This document shows, piece after piece, positions 23,285-56,881 of a DNA stretch of 64,000 bases (position 1 is the first letter of the stretch; every line of letters starts with the position of its first letter). The DNA is taken from positions 1,754 through 65,753 of the forward strand of contig JAPDLS010000001.1 of the NCBI GenBank assembly GCA_025920425.1, written 5' to 3'. The DNA comes from Candidatus Haiyanarchaeum thermophilum. Lineage in GTDB: Archaea > Nanobdellota > Nanobdellia > JAPDLS01 > Haiyanarchaeaceae. Below the pieces are notes generated by a model, which worked only from the letters and a program-made list of their open reading frames with translations, searched no databases and was not told the DNA's origin. Position numbers and translations under genes: made by a program.

Positions 23285-23421
23285 CGGGCCCGGAGGGATT
23301 TGAACCCCCGAAAGACCAGCTCTCACTGCTCAGAACAGGTCAGTTCTCTCACTGATCGACCCGCTATCAGGTCTTCATAGCTTAGGAGGCTGGTGCCCTA
23401 TCCTGGCTAGGCGACGGGCCC
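23285..23421 (-). tRNA. tRNA-Arg(CCU) with 61-nt intron at 37/38 (23322-23382)
   Basis: GGGCCCG/CGGGCCC acceptor stem, D-loop GG-A20, CCAGC/GCTGG anticodon stem, anticodon CCT at 23386-23384, GTTCAAAT T-loop. Confidence 0.9.
23322..23382 (-). ncRNA. Intron-encoded box C/D guide sRNA
   Basis: C box AUGAAGA (23378-23372), 12-nt guide CCUGAUAGCGGG, D' UCGA, C' GUGAGAG, 12-nt guide AACUGACCUGUU, D box CUGA (23333-23330), closed by a GC/GC stem. Confidence 0.8.
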
Positions 23422-23499
23422 ATATTTCACTCAGTTTTTTTGATAGTTCTAATTCGACCTATTTAAAATTTTCCTAAATAATTGCTCGGGCAATAAGTC

Positions 23500-38020: not shown

Positions 38021-38842
38021 TTGAAGATGGAAGGGAAATATCCCAGGAAGCAATTGTTGGAGGAAATTGCTAGAAGAGCTGAAATAGATCCAGGTAAGTT
38101 CAAAGAGGTCCAATTTAAAGGACAGAGCATTTATGTATATCCTACTCCATTGAGGCTAGATGAGCCTCACCCATTGGCTACAGATGAAAAAGCTTATGTA
38201 AAAGGCTTAAACTTCCCTGAACAACTCATTCTCCTTGAGAAACTCAATCCACTGCACGGCTTAAAACTTAAATTACCTTCACTGGAAGAGCATCTCACGT
38301 GCTCGATTACCTTTCCAGAGTATAGGGAGAATGTATTAAGTGATCTAGAGGCTTTTACGAATGAACTTGTCTATCGTCAGTTCCCAGAGATAAAGGAGAA
38401 AGACTCAATAAAGACGGAGGAGAAGTTTGATTTGTTTAGGGCTTCCAAATTTCGAAGTATTAGTTTGGGGATGCTTAAGGGAAAAGGCATAACTTATGAA
38501 ACTACCCCTGGATCTCCTAAAGCTCCAGGTTTCATAGCTCTCTGCGATGAAAATGACCTTTTCCTCTATATTGGAGATTGGATAGAGAAGGACGTGAAAA
38601 TAAGCAAGAGGCCAGGCTTCTTTTCCAGCTTTTCCATAATTCCAAGAGAGGATGAGGTGAAAAGGGAAGGAAGAAGGGGAGATATTGGATATTGGGGAGG
38701 TGCAGAATTCGAGAATGATGTTTCAGTTATTAGCTGCAGACATCCCTCTAAGAGCCCAATTATATGCTGGGGAGAATCCCCTCTAACTAGAAAACCCCGT
38801 AAGGTGGTCCCACTCCTCACAGAAGAAAATCCTAGGAGATAA
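38021..38842 (+). CDS. Hypothetical protein
   Basis: 273-aa ORF with TATA-like upstream sequence; no motif recognised. Confidence 0.6.
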   Translation: MKMEGKYPRKQLLEEIARRAEIDPGKFKEVQFKGQSIYVYPTPLRLDEPHPLATDEKAYVKGLNFPEQLILLEKLNPLHGLKLKLPSLEEHLTCSITFPEYRENVLSDLEAFTNELVYRQFPEIKEKDSIKTEEKFDLFRASKFRSISLGMLKGKGITYETTPGSPKAPGFIALCDENDLFLYIGDWIEKDVKISKRPGFFSSFSIIPREDEVKREGRRGDIGYWGGAEFENDVSVISCRHPSKSPIICWGESPLTRKPRKVVPLLTEENPRR

Positions 38843-40292
38843 GCTCCGCATTCCTTACACATCCAGGGTCTGGAGCTAGATAATTACCAAAATAGGCTAG
38901 AGCTCTAGCTCTGCAGCCTCCACAGATCAATTTATCCTCACAGGCTCCACATCCCACTTTTCTATTCTCCTTCCTAAAATACCACAATTTTTTCCTGTCC
39001 CTCAACTCTTCCAATATTTGATCCTTCTTCCACACTTCTAGCAGATCATCCTCTAAAATATTACCAAGCTTGACTTCTCTTGGAAAAAAAGTGCAGGGAA
39101 GTAGGTCTCCATTTGGTTCCATGGCCAAATAGAGTCTCCCAGCCCCACAACCTCCTATGAAGTTAGCAGTAGATTCTATGCTTCTGAGTTTTTCAATAGG
39201 AAGATTGATCCCTCCATAATGAGTGGATACTAAGTAATCAATTCCTTGAAGTTGAGCGACTTCTTTAGTTTTCCTCCCAAACTGAGGAGCAGTAGAAAGA
39301 ATCAGATCTCCCCTTCCTAGCTTCACATAATTTTCCAAGTTTCTGCGAGCTAGCTCTTCCAACAGATCTTCCCTCTCCTTTGGAGAGATGTCTAATTCCT
39401 TCCTCCCTCTTCCCACAGGAATGTAATTGAAGTGGATGAACCTAGCTCCCAGATCATTAGCCATCTGAGCTACCTTCAGAATATCTTCTAAGTTTCCCCT
39501 CCAAGCCGTAGTCGCAATGCATACATCAATCCCTTCATTCAAGCAATGCTTCACACCATTCAGAGCCCGCTCAAAGGCTCCAGGAATCCCCCGGAATGTA
39601 TCGTGTTTTTCCGATAGTCCATCTATGCTTATCTCCACATAATCCGCAACCTCCCTCAATTTGCGAGCCATTTTCTCATCTATGAGTGTACCGTTTGAAG
39701 CCACACTTACATAAAGTCCAGCCTTTTTAGCTCTTTTAGCTAGCTCGAAGAAATCCTTTCTCACCAGAGGTTCTCCTCCAGAGAAGGCAATGGCTGAGAC
39801 GTTAGCATCTATTAACTTCTCTAGAGCCTCTCTAGCCTCACTCTCTCCCATTTCAACTCTCTCCTTGCCAGCATCTTCGTAACAATGCTTACAGCGCAAG
39901 TTACATTTGTAGGTCAAATTCCACACTACGAGGAGAGGAGAAGCTGGAGTGAATGGTTCACGAATCCCAAACTCCTTTACTCCTCTCGCTATGGAGGCTA
40001 TACCCTTAAGCCAAGATTCTCCATATCTTCCTTTTAACATGGAGGAGATCCAATCCCTATCCACTTTTAACATTCTTTCAGCCAGAGCCAAAGTGGGAGT
40101 AGCCAAGAATTTATATGAAAGTTCACAGCCAGTACAGAGCTCAAGCTCAGGGTTCATATATCTCCTTCTCAGGAAATTTTCAAGTGTAGCCCCATCCTTC
40201 CTGCAAGGTTTATCTATGGAGTTAATCACTATCCTTCCGAGATAGCTTCCTATCTTTTCACCACACTCCATCCCAGCTCTCCCAAGATTCAT
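38832..40292 (-). CDS. Radical SAM protein with SPASM domain
   Basis: CNLRCKHC, FSGGEPL, GCGAG...PNGDLLPC, CGAC...CGGCRARA. Confidence 0.92.
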   Translation of the reverse strand: MNLGRAGMECGEKIGSYLGRIVINSIDKPCRKDGATLENFLRRRYMNPELELCTGCELSYKFLATPTLALAERMLKVDRDWISSMLKGRYGESWLKGIASIARGVKEFGIREPFTPASPLLVVWNLTYKCNLRCKHCYEDAGKERVEMGESEAREALEKLIDANVSAIAFSGGEPLVRKDFFELAKRAKKAGLYVSVASNGTLIDEKMARKLREVADYVEISIDGLSEKHDTFRGIPGAFERALNGVKHCLNEGIDVCIATTAWRGNLEDILKVAQMANDLGARFIHFNYIPVGRGRKELDISPKEREDLLEELARRNLENYVKLGRGDLILSTAPQFGRKTKEVAQLQGIDYLVSTHYGGINLPIEKLRSIESTANFIGGCGAGRLYLAMEPNGDLLPCTFFPREVKLGNILEDDLLEVWKKDQILEELRDRKKLWYFRKENRKVGCGACEDKLICGGCRARALAYFGNYLAPDPGCVRNAELIS

Positions 40293-40534
40293 ATTCTCTC
40301 CACTTTTTCTCCTTTGATTATATAAGCTCCATAAAGATTCTTACGCCTATGGTGTCTAGTAAAACTTACTCCTACTTTGAGATTCTTTTTTACCTCATAA
40401 ACCCAGAGTGGCTTGCAAATTGGGAACTCATAATATATTATCTTCGGCTCTCGCTGGAGAAGCTCCTCCAATCTGAGATTTAACTTAGAACAGACCGCTT
40501 CTAGAGCTTCCCTCTCATTCTGAAATTCTCTCAT
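40289..40534 (-). CDS. Hypothetical protein (81 aa)
   Basis: ATGA-coupled to the radical SAM gene. Confidence 0.55.
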   Translation of the reverse strand: MREFQNEREALEAVCSKLNLRLEELLQREPKIIYYEFPICKPLWVYEVKKNLKVGVSFTRHHRRKNLYGAYIIKGEKVERI

Positions 40535-40605
40535 AAGTTGAGCGAGAAGTTCCGAATTTAAAAACTTAAGCCCGAAGTTAGTTTTTTAAGAAGCTAACAA
40601 CCATA

Positions 40606-41541
40606 TTAAGGAATAAGGGCCGGTGGTCTAGGGGTATGACGCCTCCCTTGCAAGGAGGAGGCCGTGGGTTCGAGTCCCACCCGGTCCATTTTCCTTATCT
40701 TTCTCTCATAGTAGAACATGTAGAGATGAGCTATGCCTGCATGTTCTCCGAAATATGTGAGCGCAAATTTTCTGAGCTTTAGTGGGGATTTCTCCTTTCC
40801 ATTGAAATACTCTCTTATCAGAGCACGTCTAAGCCAAATATCCATAGGAAATGTTTCTGGCCTTCCAAAAGTGTAGAGCAGAATGATATCTGCCACTTTA
40901 GGACCTATTCCACTGAACTTGAGCAGGAACTCCCTAGCCTCCTCAGTACGCATTTCTCCTATCCTTTCAGGGTCCAATTCCCCATTTAATATGGCTTTAC
41001 TTATTTCCTTCACATATTTAGCCCTATATCCAAGTCCACACTTCTTCTGCAAGGCGGAAATAGGGGCTTTCACGATTTTCTCTAGATTAAAAGTATATCC
41101 ATCCCCAAAATTCCTCCTTAGACAGGATTCCATCCTTCTTACTCGCTTCACAGATGTATTCTGGGTACAGAGTGCCTCGATAATTCCCCATTTCCAATCG
41201 AGATTCCTCATCACCCTTAAACCCTTAGCGGCTGCGATGATTCTTCGAATGTAAGGATCTTTAGTGAATTCAGAGTAAAAACTCTCAAGATCATATTCTG
41301 CCCAGAAAAGATACAGAATTTCATCCACTACATCAGTGTCAGCTTCAATGAATAGATTATCCTCATCTTCCCAAAGGGCGACATGAATTATTTTTCCCCC
41401 TCTCTTCACGAAACTACAGTATTTATTTCCATGTGGGCTCCATAGGTCTACAGGACACTGCTCACTTTCCATACAAGCTCTTAAGCTAAATGGTCCATTG
41501 AATTCAGCTTTGGAAACTCTGAGTAGCATTCCTCTACACAA
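40606..41541 (-). CDS. HhH-GPD DNA glycosylase (Ogg1/AlkA-like)
   Basis: TQNTS, GLGYRAKY, FSGIGPKVADIILL, FPMDIW. The C-terminal ~27 codons are antisense to tRNA-Ala. Confidence 0.88.
   Translation of the reverse strand: MCRGMLLRVSKAEFNGPFSLRACMESEQCPVDLWSPHGNKYCSFVKRGGKIIHVALWEDEDNLFIEADTDVVDEILYLFWAEYDLESFYSEFTKDPYIRRIIAAAKGLRVMRNLDWKWGIIEALCTQNTSVKRVRRMESCLRRNFGDGYTFNLEKIVKAPISALQKKCGLGYRAKYVKEISKAILNGELDPERIGEMRTEEAREFLLKFSGIGPKVADIILLYTFGRPETFPMDIWLRRALIREYFNGKEKSPLKLRKFALTYFGEHAGIAHLYMFYYERKIRKMDRVGLEPTASSLQGRRHTPRPPALIP
40617..40688 (+). tRNA. tRNA-Ala(UGC)
   Basis: GGGCCGG/CCGGTCC acceptor with G3:U70, CCTCC-CT-TGC-AA-GGAGG, TTCGAGT T-loop. Confidence 0.95.
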
Positions 41542-41573
41542 AAGTTATAAATTTTTAGAGTTTCTCTCCACTC

Positions 41574-42014
41574 ATGCATATAGAAGTAGACCTCACTAAG
41601 TGTGTGGATTGCAAAAATTGTATGCTCCTCTGCTCTTTCTTCAATGAGAAAGATTTTATTCCAAGCCTAGCTCGAATTAAGGTGTTAAGGAAAGGATACA
41701 ATACTTTTTCTTGGCATGTATGCCAACAACATGAAAAGGAACTTTGTAGACAAAGTTCTTGTATCAAATCCTGTCCTAAAGGGGCAATCATGAAAAGGGG
41801 AGGAAGGATAGTTATTGATTATGAGCTCTGCGATGGATGCGGTAAGTGTGTAGAGGTATGCAAATATGATGCTATTTTCATTCATCCCAAATTGAAAAAA
41901 CCAGTAGTATGCATACTCTGCCTGAATTGCGTGAAAAATTGTAAGAGAGGGGCTATAAAAATATTTGAGGGAAATGTGGAGGTAACTGAGAAGGTACTTG
42001 GTGGTAAAAGATGA
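41574..42014 (+). CDS. 4Fe-4S dicluster electron-transfer subunit
   Basis: CVDCKNCMLLC, CQQH...CIKSCP, CDGCGKCVEVC, CILCLNCVKNC; coupled to the AOR gene. Confidence 0.88.
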   Translation: MHIEVDLTKCVDCKNCMLLCSFFNEKDFIPSLARIKVLRKGYNTFSWHVCQQHEKELCRQSSCIKSCPKGAIMKRGGRIVIDYELCDGCGKCVEVCKYDAIFIHPKLKKPVVCILCLNCVKNCKRGAIKIFEGNVEVTEKVLGGKR

Positions 42015-43732
42015 GCTATGCTGGGAAGATCTTGAAGATCGATCTTGGAAATAAAGTAATAAAGCCAATACCATTGGATGAGAGGCTTTGCAAGCAATAC
42101 ATCGGTGGAGAGGGATTTGGAGTAAAGATTCTTTACGATATTTCCGAGCCAAATATTCACCCATTAAGTTCCAAAAATCCATTCATTTTGATGTGTGGTA
42201 CATTTGCAGGACTACCAATTCCAGCTTCTTTATATGGTGTCTTCGCCAAGTCCCCACAGACCCAATTTTTGGGAGAAGCCTTCGCCAAGGGAATGTTCGC
42301 TCCCGAGCTTAAGTATGCTGGGTATGATGGAATTGTAATTTTGAATAAGGCAAGAGATCCATGCTACATTTTCATAGAAGATGATGAAGTATCTATAAGG
42401 TCTGCGAGGGAGCTATGGGGTAAAGATACCCTCACTACTATTGAGACCTTGATGGAATTACATCCCAGAGCAGAAATTCTATGTATTGGGCCTGCAGGAG
42501 AAAACTGTGTGGGCTTTGCATCTATAGAAAATGATTTCGGGAGACACGCTGGAAGGACTGGGCTTGGGGCAGTACTTGGCTCTAAAAACGTGAAAGCGAT
42601 CGTAGTCAGGGGAAGCAAGGGAATAAAGGTTAATGATCCATCAGCTTTGTGGAAGGAGTTGGAGCATATCTGGGAAGAGGAATTCTCGGAAAAAACTGAA
42701 AAGTATAGGCTCTACGGAACTCCAGGAGGAGTAAAGGGAATAAATGAAATGAGGAGCCTTCCTGCACGAAATTGGCATAGCAGCTACGTGGAATTTGCTG
42801 AGAAGATCTCAGGTGAGGCTATGAGGTCCTTAGTAAAAAAAGAGCTGGCATGCCTCGGATGCTTTGTAGCCTGTAGAAAATTGTTGAAGGTAAATGGCGA
42901 CTTCGTTGAAGGGCCTGAGTATGAGACCATATATTCATTTGGAACAAACTGCCTAATAGATGACTTGGAGGAGATAGCTAGACTGCATCTCCGCTGTGAT
43001 CTCCTAGGCTTAGATGCGATCTCTGCTGGAGCAATTACTGCATTTGCGATAGACCTCTTTGAGAGGGGAAGGCTCAGTGAGCAGCAATTAGGATTCAATT
43101 TGAGTTACGGGGATGTAGAAGCTATAGAAGAATTCCTTGAGTTGATAGCATACCGTAAGGGAGTGGGAGAAATCTTCGCGAGAGGGATCAAATATGCTGC
43201 AGAGAAGTTTGGAGCAGAGCAGCTTGCGGTGCATGTAAAGGGACTTGAACCAGCTGGCTATGAAGCTAGGCATATGAAGGCTATGGGATTAGGGTATGCT
43301 ATTTCTAGAAGAGGGGCATGTCATCTTCGCTCTGGAGGCTATGAAATAGATGCAAAGTTCCCAAATCTGAAGACCCAAGAGAGAATAAAAGCTCTGATCC
43401 TCAAAGAGAATCAGTATGTACTCTATGATTCGTTTGGGGTCTGCAAGTTCATGCGGGGTTTTATAGATGAGCATTATCTCGCTCAGTTGAGCAGAGTCAT
43501 TCTAGGATGGAATACAACACCTGAGAAATTGCTTGAATTAGCTTCAAATATAATCACACTTGCCAGAAAGTATAATGTGAGAGAAGGACTCACAATGCAG
43601 GATGATATGCTCCCTGAGAGGCTATTCAAGGAGAAAGTAAATGGAAAAAGATTAAGCAAAGCAGCATTTATTAAAGAACTCAAATTGTACTATAGAATGA
43701 GAGGCTGGAGCCCGGAGGGGGTTCCGAGGTAA
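42011..43732 (+). CDS. aor: Aldehyde:ferredoxin oxidoreductase family (W/Mo-pterin)
   Basis: KSPQT, ELKYAGYDG, IGPAGEN, GRTGLGAVLGSKNVKA, CLGCFVAC, GPEYET, LGLDAIS, RGACH. Confidence 0.92.
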   Translation: MSYAGKILKIDLGNKVIKPIPLDERLCKQYIGGEGFGVKILYDISEPNIHPLSSKNPFILMCGTFAGLPIPASLYGVFAKSPQTQFLGEAFAKGMFAPELKYAGYDGIVILNKARDPCYIFIEDDEVSIRSARELWGKDTLTTIETLMELHPRAEILCIGPAGENCVGFASIENDFGRHAGRTGLGAVLGSKNVKAIVVRGSKGIKVNDPSALWKELEHIWEEEFSEKTEKYRLYGTPGGVKGINEMRSLPARNWHSSYVEFAEKISGEAMRSLVKKELACLGCFVACRKLLKVNGDFVEGPEYETIYSFGTNCLIDDLEEIARLHLRCDLLGLDAISAGAITAFAIDLFERGRLSEQQLGFNLSYGDVEAIEEFLELIAYRKGVGEIFARGIKYAAEKFGAEQLAVHVKGLEPAGYEARHMKAMGLGYAISRRGACHLRSGGYEIDAKFPNLKTQERIKALILKENQYVLYDSFGVCKFMRGFIDEHYLAQLSRVILGWNTTPEKLLELASNIITLARKYNVREGLTMQDDMLPERLFKEKVNGKRLSKAAFIKELKLYYRMRGWSPEGVPR

Positions 43733-53222: not shown

Positions 53223-53306
53223 GTCGGGGTAGTTTAGCGGTAGAATGCCAGGCTCATGAGCCTCTGGGAGACCTGGAGGTCCCGGGTTCAAATCCCGGCC
53301 CCGACA
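53223..53306 (+). tRNA. tRNA with CAU anticodon (elongator Met most likely), 12-nt intron 53259-53270
   Basis: GTCGGGG/CCCCGAC, CCAGG-CT-CAT-G|intron|A-CCTGG; CUCA pairs with intron UGGG (BHB-like). Lacks the initiator A1:U72 pair and the three G:C pairs. Confidence 0.9.
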
Positions 53307-55212: not shown

Positions 55213-56214
55213 GTGGAAGCAAGAGTCTATATGTTTGGAGTTCTTGTATTCAAGGGAGGAAAGGTAATAGAGAAGATTCTATTTTCCCCTATGCAAGCAG
55301 CAGAGTTCTACCTCAATTATGAGGTCAAATTAAAAGAATTGTTAGATGAACTGGCTAAGAGGGGGATTCAAATTAAAGAGGTGAAGAAGAGTTTCTGGAA
55401 AGAAGAAATACAATTGCTAGATGAGCTAGGAATCTTCAAGGGGAAGCAGGAATTCAGGAGGTTTAGACGACAGTTCTTCGTAGAGCTGTGCAAGCTTAAG
55501 ATGAAGGCTATGCCATTTGAGGATAAGATTATAATAAATCTCATAAACGGCTTAGACGAACTTAATAAAGTGATAAATATCTTTCTGGAAAGAATAGTAG
55601 AGCTCTATGGAAATTTCTTTCCCGAGGCCATTCATGCTGCTGGAGATTATGAGAAAATAGTGAGACTTGTAGCTATAGATCCGCGCCGCGAATTCGTTGC
55701 TACACAGCTAAAACTGAGCTTGGAAAGCATGGGCTCTGAATTTGGAGAGGAAGATCTGAGGATCATTAAAGTCTATGCCAAAAGAGCAGTAGATCTTATA
55801 AACCTAAAAAATGAGATAACTGCCCATCTTGAGGCTAAAATGAATAGAATTGCTCCAAATCTGAGCAAAGTAGCTACTCCCTTGATCGGAGCAAAGCTTG
55901 TAGCTGCTGCTGGTAGCCTTGAAGCCTTGGCAAGACTTCCCGCAAGCACAATTCAACTTTTAGGGGCTGAAAAAGCCCTATTTAGGCATTTGAGGAAAGG
56001 AGCTAAGCCTCCGAAACATGGTTACATTCTCGCTCATCCACTGGTTAAGGGAGCTCCCCTCAAAGATAGGGGAAAGATCGCTCGTACTTTAGCTTCGAAG
56101 ATAGCAATAGCAACTAAGGTAGATGTGTACGGAAAGGAGGATAGAAGTGAAATCATACTGAAGGAGCTTCAAGAGAGAATAAAGAGGATAAAAGATGAGG
56201 GTGGAAAAAAGTAA
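55213..56214 (+). CDS. nop5: Box C/D RNP protein Nop5 (Nop56/58)
   Basis: IAPNL, LPASTIQLLGAEKALFRHL, PKHG, RGKIAR. Confidence 0.95.
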   Translation: MEARVYMFGVLVFKGGKVIEKILFSPMQAAEFYLNYEVKLKELLDELAKRGIQIKEVKKSFWKEEIQLLDELGIFKGKQEFRRFRRQFFVELCKLKMKAMPFEDKIIINLINGLDELNKVINIFLERIVELYGNFFPEAIHAAGDYEKIVRLVAIDPRREFVATQLKLSLESMGSEFGEEDLRIIKVYAKRAVDLINLKNEITAHLEAKMNRIAPNLSKVATPLIGAKLVAAAGSLEALARLPASTIQLLGAEKALFRHLRKGAKPPKHGYILAHPLVKGAPLKDRGKIARTLASKIAIATKVDVYGKEDRSEIILKELQERIKRIKDEGGKK

Positions 56215-56881
56215 GGTAAATGCGAATGTGTTTTTCCTAAAAAATGGGGGCAAGATTCTAGCTACTAAGAATTTGGTGAAAGGATTCAGGTTCTCAGATG
56301 AGAGGCTTTTCACCATAGGTGATGTAGAGTATAGAGAGTGGATTCCCAATCGTAGTAAGATAGCTGCAGCCATCTTAAATGGCCTCAAGGTTCTTCCAAT
56401 CCAAAAGGGAAGTAGAGTTCTATATCTGGGGGCAGCAGCTGGGCAAACAGCTAGTTATTGTAGCGATATCGTGGGGAAGGATGGGGTAGTATATTGTGTT
56501 GAGATTTCCGACAGAGTTTTGAGGGAGTTAATCTTAAGATGTGCTCCTAGGGAAAATATGCTTCCCATCTTGGCAGATGCCTCCAAGATCGAGGAATATG
56601 GAGATCTTATTAAGGAAGTGGATTTCGTTTTTCAAGACATAGCTCAAAGGAATCAAGTGGAAATCTTCATCAGAAATTGTGAATACTTCCTCAGGCAAAA
56701 TAGTTTCGGGATGCTTGCGGTGAAGGCTAGGAGTATAGATGTGGTAGAGCAACCATCTAAGATCTTCAAGAAGGTTGAGGAGGAGCTAAGGAGGCAAAAT
56801 TTTGAGATAGTAGATTATAAAAGGCTGGAACCATTTGAGAGAGACCATTGCGTTTTTCTAGTTAAAAAACAAAAAGCTTAA
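56195..56881 (+). CDS. flpA: Fibrillarin (2'-O-methyltransferase)
   Basis: EYREW.P.RSK, VLYLGAAAG, DIAQRNQ, LEPFERDH. Confidence 0.96.
   Translation: MRVEKSKVNANVFFLKNGGKILATKNLVKGFRFSDERLFTIGDVEYREWIPNRSKIAAAILNGLKVLPIQKGSRVLYLGAAAGQTASYCSDIVGKDGVVYCVEISDRVLRELILRCAPRENMLPILADASKIEEYGDLIKEVDFVFQDIAQRNQVEIFIRNCEYFLRQNSFGMLAVKARSIDVVEQPSKIFKKVEEELRRQNFEIVDYKRLEPFERDHCVFLVKKQKA

Follow-up and report, generated by a model that had tools for sequence, protein, structure and literature searches.

A tRNA-Arg(CCU) intron as predicted host of a box C/D guide for 16S rRNA helix 34 in Nanoarchaeia

Introduction

This study addressed whether the 61-nt intron of the tRNA-Arg(CCU) gene of Candidatus Haiyanarchaeum thermophilum constitutes a methylation-guide sRNA of the box C/D class, and which RNA such a guide would modify. 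The window referred to below is the whole stretch of DNA that was analysed, 64,000 nucleotides in length, and coordinates given without a contig label are positions in it. Work on the box C/D sRNA of the tRNA-Trp intron reportedly includes studies by Clouet d'Orval in 2001 and Singh in 2004. This sRNA is present in the euryarchaeal pre-tRNA-Trp intron of Haloferax volcanii and in that of Pyrococcus, as sR50 (cited in PMC7994747 and PMC4090602). A 2014 review termed the tRNA-Trp intron "a unique example" of a guide-encoding intron (PMC4090602), and a 2021 review listed only the known tRNA-intron contexts and tRNA-sRNA dicistrons (PMC7994747). Intron-encoded C/D guides of archaea appear in the literature considered here as the special case of tRNA-Trp self-methylation and one putative case in a tRNA-Met (PMC4090602, PMC3491384).

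Results

Gene structure and box C/D architecture

We analyzed the tRNA gene with Rfam and ARAGORN and by direct reading of the minus strand. The gene and its upstream region comprised the following features:

23285..23421, minus strand: tRNA-Arg(CCU) gene with intron (Rfam RF00005, 39.7 bits; ARAGORN with introns)
23383..23421, minus strand: 5' exon, nt 1-37, ending in CUCCUA, anticodon CCU (direct read; Rfam alignment)
23322..23382, minus strand: 61-nt intron at the canonical position 37/38, the box C/D sRNA
23285..23321, minus strand: 3' exon, A38 to G73
23460..23469, minus strand: candidate TATA-like element ATTTTAAATA, approximately 39-48 nt upstream of the mature 5' end (judged from the sequence read)

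The Rfam match exceeded the gathering score of 29 and contained 63 inserted bases in the anticodon loop. ARAGORN missed the gene in its default mode and, when introns were allowed, reported tRNA-Arg(cct) with a 61-nt intron, i(41,61). The 14-contig assembly totals 723 kb and contains 41 tRNA genes, of which this was the only CCU isoacceptor. Its cloverleaf retained four stems and the T loop intact, and its variable loop comprised 6 nt (UCUUUC), compared with 5 nt in relatives. Elsewhere in the window, a tRNA-Met(CAU) gene (53223-53306, plus strand), labeled "tRNA-???" by ARAGORN in default mode, contained a short intron of 12-15 nt.

On the minus strand, from 23382 to 23322, the intron read AGCU-AUGAAGA-CCUGAUAGCGGG-UCGA-UCA-GUGAGAG-AACUGACCUGUU-CUGA-GCAGUGAG. 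This reading reproduced exactly the double-guide C/D parse with two 12-nt spacers that the preliminary description had proposed for all 61 nt. The elements were as follows:

23372..23378, minus strand: box C, AUGAAGA, 6 of 7 positions matching RUGAUGA
23360..23371, minus strand: D' guide CCUGAUAGCGGG, 12 nt; best candidate target 16S C30 (E. coli C36)
23356..23359, minus strand: box D', UCGA, GA kept
23346..23352, minus strand: box C', GUGAGAG, GA kept
23334..23345, minus strand: D guide AACUGACCUGUU, 12 nt; positions 2-11 perfectly complementary to 16S helix 34
23330..23333, minus strand: box D, CUGA, canonical
23322..23329, minus strand: 3' tail GCAGUGAG, made up of GC (closing the terminal stem), AGUG (3' strand of the central helix) and AG (in the 3' bulge)

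The claimed kink-turn with a 3-nt bulge and a GC/GC stem was confirmed, since G2-C55 and C3-G54 can pair beside the bulge U4 A5 U6. D' and C' lay 3 nt apart (UCGA-UCA-GUGAGAG), inside the 3-9 nt range of a K-loop, and were degenerate but pairable outside the two GA dinucleotides. These two boxes had also been said to covary, and this claim held in part: positions 5 and 6 of C' can pair with positions 2 and 1 of D' (G-C and A-U), but the covariation was deduced from one sequence, and most relatives carry the canonical CUGA and AUGAUGA. The curated Rfam C/D families yielded no match to the intron at threshold; sR14 (RF01145) scored 16.9 bits against a threshold of 38, and sR17 scored 12.2 against 36. 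Because these scores fell below the gathering thresholds, the intron does not belong to any curated Rfam C/D family, although it exhibits the architecture of the class.

A 9-nt direct repeat on the minus strand, CAGUGAGAG, occurred at the D'-C' junction (23346-23354) and again across the 3' splice site (23320-23328). The repeat provides box D with a second possible K-loop partner, and the relative G013 contained an analogous GAAGUGAAAG. A permissive scan of the genome for further C/D sRNAs was dominated by noise, with 52 matches in the real and 46 in the shuffled sequence. The scan did yield one convincing stand-alone C/D sRNA at C1:~359160-359225 on the plus strand, GGG-AUGUGGA-CGCUCAUGAGCA-CUGA-AUAAGG-AUGAGGA-GUGAUGGGCGGU-CUGA-ACCC, the D guide of which matched 16S ACCGCCCGUCA (own position ~1359, decoding centre) with nine Watson-Crick pairs and one G.U pair.

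Splicing motif

The exon-intron junctions at 37/38 comprised, in order, the anticodon stem, a 3' bulge (AG/A), a central helix of four positions, a 5' bulge (UA/A) and helix h'. The central helix is formed by C32-C35 and intron nt 56-59, and helix h' is the terminal stem of the sRNA. The spacing of this bulge-helix-bulge (BHB) motif was exact. The central helix of our genome and of G013 (CUCC/AGUG) paired as C-G, U.U, C-G and C.A, with two of four pairs of the Watson-Crick type, compared with four of four in seven relatives (CUCC/GGAG or CUCC/GGGG) and three of four in two. With only two such pairs, efficient splicing is not self-evident. The AGCU repeated at the junctions allows the splice positions to be shifted by +1 to +4 with the same mature tRNA, and none of these shifts improved the BHB motif.

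Our genome and G013, and precisely these two, carried a C-box-like word after box D (CUGA-GC-AGUGAGAG and CCGA-GA-AGUGAAAG). In our genome, this word makes up the 9-nt direct repeat with the D'-C' junction. It is conceivable, though doubtful, that in these two genomes the word enables L7Ae to shape the cleavage site in place of a 4-bp helix. The splicing endonuclease EndA is encoded by a single gene and comprises 175 aa. Small DPANN EndA proteins with an extra loop have been associated with disrupted tRNA genes (PMC5829648); this report suggests that the 175-aa enzyme may be of that type and have relaxed specificity.

The tRNA portion could also be a decaying host gene, kept mainly for expression of the sRNA, while tRNA-Arg(UCU) reads AGG by wobble. 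The unusual 6-nt variable loop, the degenerate BHB helix and the presence of a tRNA-Arg(UCU) gene in the genome are compatible with such decay. We nevertheless regard it as very unlikely, because the four stems and the T loop show no disruption, the Rfam score exceeds its threshold and relatives retain a canonical tRNA.

Conservation of the module in relatives

BLAST searches against relatives revealed matches that spanned the full length of the gene with its intron in G013 and G035, which represent two other families. We built a sequence-only covariance model from the introns of our genome, G013 and G035 and searched 401 genomes of the class Nanoarchaeia. Twelve matches were obtained, 11 of which were located in the 37/38 intron of a tRNA-Arg(CCU) gene, in six families (own genome, G013, G035, G058, G048, G021, G007, G083, G059, G075 and G067). 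The same module therefore occupies the same tRNA intron in ten other species-level genomes of Nanoarchaeia, which belong to five further families. ARAGORN confirmed tRNA-Arg(CCU) in 9 of the 11; it misread the gene of G013 as tRNA-Ser and missed that of G058, and in both of these we identified the CUCCUA anticodon loop and its flanking stems by direct reading. The same-genus genome G001 was left out because its contig ends inside the neighboring rubrerythrin gene.

The exact pattern CCUCCUA ... UGAWGA ... ACUGACCU NNN CYGA was searched for in 185,579 species genomes and identified nine contigs. These were labeled Nanoarchaeia, Nanoarchaeota, Woesearchaeota, Parvarchaeota or uncultured archaeon, and all belonged to genomes found with the covariance model. 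These affiliations place our organism among the DPANN archaea, in the class Nanoarchaeia.

Most orthologous introns retained the boxes and the 12-nt spacing, as the preliminary description had anticipated for a genuine guide. The D spacer was 12 nt long in 11 of 11 introns, boxes C and D were kept throughout, and the box C variant AUGAAGA recurred in G013, G083 and G007. The exceptions were a hairpin in place of D' in G035 and G058 and a C-to-D' spacer of 11 nt in G007. The terminal stems varied in sequence yet remained paired (GC/GC, UC/GA and AAAAAGU/AUUUUUU). Across families, the D spacer was the most conserved part of the intron.

D guide and 16S rRNA helix 34

When the whole genome was searched for complementary sequences, the D guide matched the 16S rRNA gene (C1:311361-312846) at the site GACAGGUCAGUA. 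Positions 2-11 of the guide formed ten contiguous Watson-Crick pairs with this site; position 1 formed a G.U pair and position 12 was mismatched. We estimated the chance of ten such contiguous pairs in a fixed register, for one guide against approximately 4.5 kb of rRNA, at ~0.004. According to the fifth-nucleotide rule, the duplex predicts 2'-O-methylation at own G1154, the first G of CAGGUC. In the alignment, G1154 corresponds to E. coli A1197, on the 3' strand of helix 34. We take helix 34 to be a decoding-site helix, with E. coli 1197 beside the A-site/tetracycline pocket.

The duplex was complete, at 10 of 10 Watson-Crick pairs, in seven genomes for which the 16S sequence was available (own, G013, G035, G048, G021, G002 and G083). 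The rRNA read GACAGG in our genome, GAUAGG in G013, G021 and G002, and GGUAGG in G035, G048 and G083, and the matching guides read ..CCUGUN, ..CCUAUN and ..CCUACN, respectively. These paired changes in rRNA and guide switch position 2 from U-A to C-G and position 3 from G-C to A-U; at position 3, the guide carries G opposite C in our genome and A opposite U elsewhere. Covariation between guide and target, which had been put forward as a check on the guide function, was therefore found in relatives at two guide positions across seven genomes. Guide positions 1 and 12, by contrast with these, varied without regard to the target. According to structural work on archaeal C/D RNPs, a 12-nt spacer accommodates only 10 bp, and the free drift of these two positions is what this limit leads one to expect.

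G007 exhibited one mismatch in the helix-34 duplex, in an assembly with 6% contamination. G058 was not included in the duplex count, the helix-34 site being outside the recovered 16S stretch. In this genome (L128 and L118; C15:31385-35774 and 38441-42371), the models extended over 4.4 kb for 16S and 3.9 kb for 23S, lengths that point to large insertions, possibly rRNA introns, in both genes.

Stand-alone sRNAs with the same guide

A pattern scan with the guide and boxes C, D' and D identified, in archaea, approximately 40 stand-alone C/D sRNAs that carry this D guide, together with a background of bacterial chance matches. The copies in Vulcanisaeta, Caldivirga, Korarchaeia, Iainarchaeota and Micrarchaeota were unannotated. 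Their hosts were Vulcanisaeta, Caldivirga, Korarchaeia (Methanodesulfokora), other Thermoproteota, Iainarchaeota and Micrarchaeota, and sR32 of Pyrobaculum calidifontis carries the same D guide (supplement of PMC4644070). These sRNAs have in common the core ACUGACCU, which is separated from box D by 3 nt, and presumably address the same 16S helix-34 site, with a likeness that may reflect homology or convergence. They differ from the intron in being independent genes outside tRNAs, with their own terminal stems and with D' guides unrelated to that of the intron. The recurrence of one D guide in so many stand-alone sRNAs indicates that the helix-34 site is widely targeted; the tRNA-intron location of this guide is the peculiarity of Nanoarchaeia.

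The twelfth covariance-model match, in G002, was itself a stand-alone copy with a 5-bp terminal stem. Within family f2, the sRNA was intronic in G021 and stand-alone in G002, where it lay beside an intron-less tRNA-Arg(CCU) gene that was 89% identical to the spliced sequence of G021. The D' guide of the G002 copy resembled that of G021. These findings indicate that the module moved into or out of the intron within family f2. The G002 copy (L043, C11:80744-80806) was preceded by a perfect 9-bp hairpin, GAGAGCACUGUUAUUGCUGUGCUCUC.

The C/D motif could instead serve as an L7Ae-binding aid for the folding or splicing of the pre-tRNA, or be a decaying relic, with spacers that guide no methylation. 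The degenerate D' and C' boxes, the weak central helix of the BHB, given which the substrate might depend on a K-turn protein for its shape, and the C-box-like AGUGAGAG at the 3' splice site are compatible with such a reading. We consider it very unlikely, since it is the D spacer that is most conserved and that covaries with 16S helix 34 at two positions, and since stand-alone sRNAs use this same spacer.

D' guide and its candidate targets

The best rRNA site of the D' guide in our genome was 16S ACUGCUAUCGGG, with eight Watson-Crick and two G.U pairs at positions 2-11 and with C30 (E. coli C36) as the target nucleotide. By our estimate, a random guide would achieve such a match with a chance of ~10%. 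C30 is situated in the helix-3 region, which has been described as a hot spot of methylation (PMC4644070). For the homologous D' guide of G013, C30 was not the best site; a better fit was obtained on the 5' strand of helix 34 (GCCGCCGUCAGC, approximately E. coli U1062). This site lies opposite the strand addressed by the D guide. Each of the two guides would then hold one strand of helix 34, an arrangement that has been proposed for other sRNAs (PMC4644070). On the same 5' strand, the D' guide of our genome had a mismatch adjoining the methylation site. The D' guide of family f3 differed and matched 23S rRNA perfectly over 10 bp (G048). We tentatively suggest that 16S rRNA is probably the substrate of the D' guide as well, with a target at C30 in helix 3 or on the helix-34 strand that faces the D-guide site.

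Searched genome-wide with at most one mismatch, the D' guide yielded matches at chance level, none of which lay in a tRNA gene. The best pairings of either guide with the pre-tRNA were weak and lay off the anticodon arm, and neither guide addressed nt 34 or 39 of that arm in the manner of the tRNA-Trp intron. The earlier statement that neither guide matches the host tRNA was thus upheld. The proposal that a tRNA-Arg intron would release a trans-acting rRNA guide gained support from the D guide, which forms a perfect 10-bp duplex with helix 34 as a covarying predicted target.

Alternatively, the two guides could have neighboring targets in 23S rRNA (window ~34507-34527), where CCCGCUAU is complementary to the eight D'-proximal guide nucleotides. 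We judge this highly improbable, because the D' match pairs positions 1-8 only and then has three mismatches in four, the best 23S match of the D guide contains an internal mismatch and scores 14 compared with 20 for 16S helix 34, and the site that covaries is the one in 16S. The 23S targets were accordingly rejected for both guides as weaker than the 16S sites, at eight pairs for D' and with the internal mismatch for D.

The 23S rRNA gene occupies 33917-36902 on the minus strand of the window, and the 16S gene is unlinked, approximately 275 kb off. On the same minus strand, 35 nt separate the 23S gene from the RNase P RNA gene downstream of it (33631-33881, 129.8 bits).

Short, degenerate boxes are easily found by eye, but the reading of the intron as an ordinary long tRNA intron with a chance resemblance to box C/D is effectively refuted: an architecture regex run on both strands of the 723-kb genome matched exactly once, in the tRNA-Arg(CCU) intron, compared with ~0.01 matches per genome expected by chance (our estimate from the box degeneracies), and the module is conserved in ten other genomes and covaries with its target.

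Short introns of other tRNA genes

Four further tRNA genes of this genome contained a short intron:

C1:214323-214422, plus strand: tRNA-Trp-CCA with a short intron
C1:249462-249571, plus strand: tRNA-Gln-UUG with a short intron (mislabeled by ARAGORN)
C1:135565-135687, minus strand: tRNA-Lys-UUU with a short intron (mislabeled by ARAGORN)
C1:83849-83963, plus strand: tRNA-Glu-UUC with a short intron (mislabeled by ARAGORN)

These introns were 27-40 nt long, and each contained a single K-loop of the D'/C' type, consisting of CUGA, 2-6 nt and AGAUGAGGA, AUGAAGA or AUGUGGAGGA, located just before the 3' splice site. In each, the approximately 10 nt upstream of CUGA were antisense to the gene's own anticodon loop, with the fifth nucleotide pairing with nt 34. 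Nine pairs were counted in Gln (eight Watson-Crick and one G.U), Lys and Glu, and only six in Trp. The four introns look like one-sided mini guides for Cm34 or Um34. Across the class, the exact mini K-loop pattern gave ~76 matches compared with ~22 in the control, mostly in coding DNA.

Related observations were made on other tRNA genes. In another family of Nanoarchaeia, G032 and G045 (L142 and L143, ~position 1500) carried a tRNA that ARAGORN called Leu(cag), with an anticodon loop reading CAA and a 31-nt intron. This intron, ACUUGAGCG-CUGA-UGAAA-AGAUGAGGA, was registered on its own C34 and had the same mini-guide design. The tRNA-Lys(UUU) gene listed above exhibited two apparent introns, one in the D arm (GCUC...AGA/AAGCUUACCAA/GAGC) and one at 37/38, and a similar D-arm insertion was present in tRNA-Lys(CUU) (C1:335822-335918).

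Protein partners and proposed pathway

The preliminary description had placed Nop5 and fibrillarin in the same window as the intron, and Pfam searches confirmed both:

55213..56214, plus strand: Nop5 (Nop domain), C/D RNP core protein (Pfam PF01798, E=2e-52)
56195..56881, plus strand: fibrillarin, 2'-O-methyltransferase (Pfam PF01269, E=9e-82)

The genes for L7Ae, EndA, RtcB, Nop5 and fibrillarin were all encoded in the genome. On the model of established archaeal pathways, the pre-tRNA would be transcribed and cut at 37/38 by EndA, after which RtcB would join the exons and probably circularize the 61-nt intron. L7Ae would bind the C/D kink-turn and the C'/D' K-loop, Nop5-fibrillarin would assemble on the guide RNA, and own G1154, paired with the D guide AACUGACCUGUU, would occupy the fifth position from box D and undergo 2'-O-methylation. 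Judged from sequence comparison, we consider it likely that the single tRNA-Arg(CCU) gene is also the host of a trans-acting C/D methylation-guide sRNA for 16S rRNA.

Discussion

The intron of tRNA-Arg(CCU) has in common with that of euryarchaeal tRNA-Trp a complete C/D sRNA at position 37/38, the terminal stem of which is continuous with the splicing motif. The tRNA-Trp sRNA is released by EndA, and by analogy the same may apply here. The two differ in their targets: the tRNA-Trp intron acts on its own tRNA (Cm34 and Um39), whereas the tRNA-Arg(CCU) intron has no complementarity to its host and carries a predicted guide for 16S rRNA. [quoted passage not shown] The two cases share a host in the Nanoarchaeota/DPANN and a C/D-like RNA in a tRNA other than tRNA-Trp; the N. 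equitans RNA has a mutated box C and, as far as we found, no named target, whereas the tRNA-Arg(CCU) intron has both box pairs, 12-nt spacers and a covarying rRNA target. Within the collection of literature searched, we found neither a guide reported in a tRNA-Arg intron nor a tRNA-intron guide for which an rRNA target had been demonstrated.

A further likeness is to eukaryotic snoRNAs. Yeast snR56 and human U25 guide Gm1428 and Gm1490, respectively, in helix 34 of 18S rRNA (PMC2794176). Their methylation falls on a G within the CAGGUC stretch that also holds the G predicted here, and affects either the equivalent nucleotide or its neighbor. Eukaryotic intronic snoRNAs likewise are rRNA guides from the intron of an unrelated host gene; the eukaryotic host is an mRNA spliced by the spliceosome, whereas the host here is a tRNA spliced by a protein endonuclease. 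Because the intron guide is aimed at 16S rRNA and not at its own tRNA, it would be an archaeal counterpart of the eukaryotic intron-hosted snoRNAs.

The predictions are directly testable, namely that one defined position of 16S rRNA carries a Gm and that the intron exists as an RNA of 61 nt, probably in circular form. Through the intron, a product of tRNA splicing would serve ribosome modification in a genome of 0.7 Mb, and the intron offers a concrete example of the mobility of C/D guide genes through tRNA introns. It is possible, though doubtful at present, that tRNA introns are a general vehicle for methylation guides in Nanoarchaeia, with guide genes moving in and out of them. If this were true, intron-hosted snoRNAs would have a precedent in prokaryotes, and such a vehicle might even represent their ancestral state.
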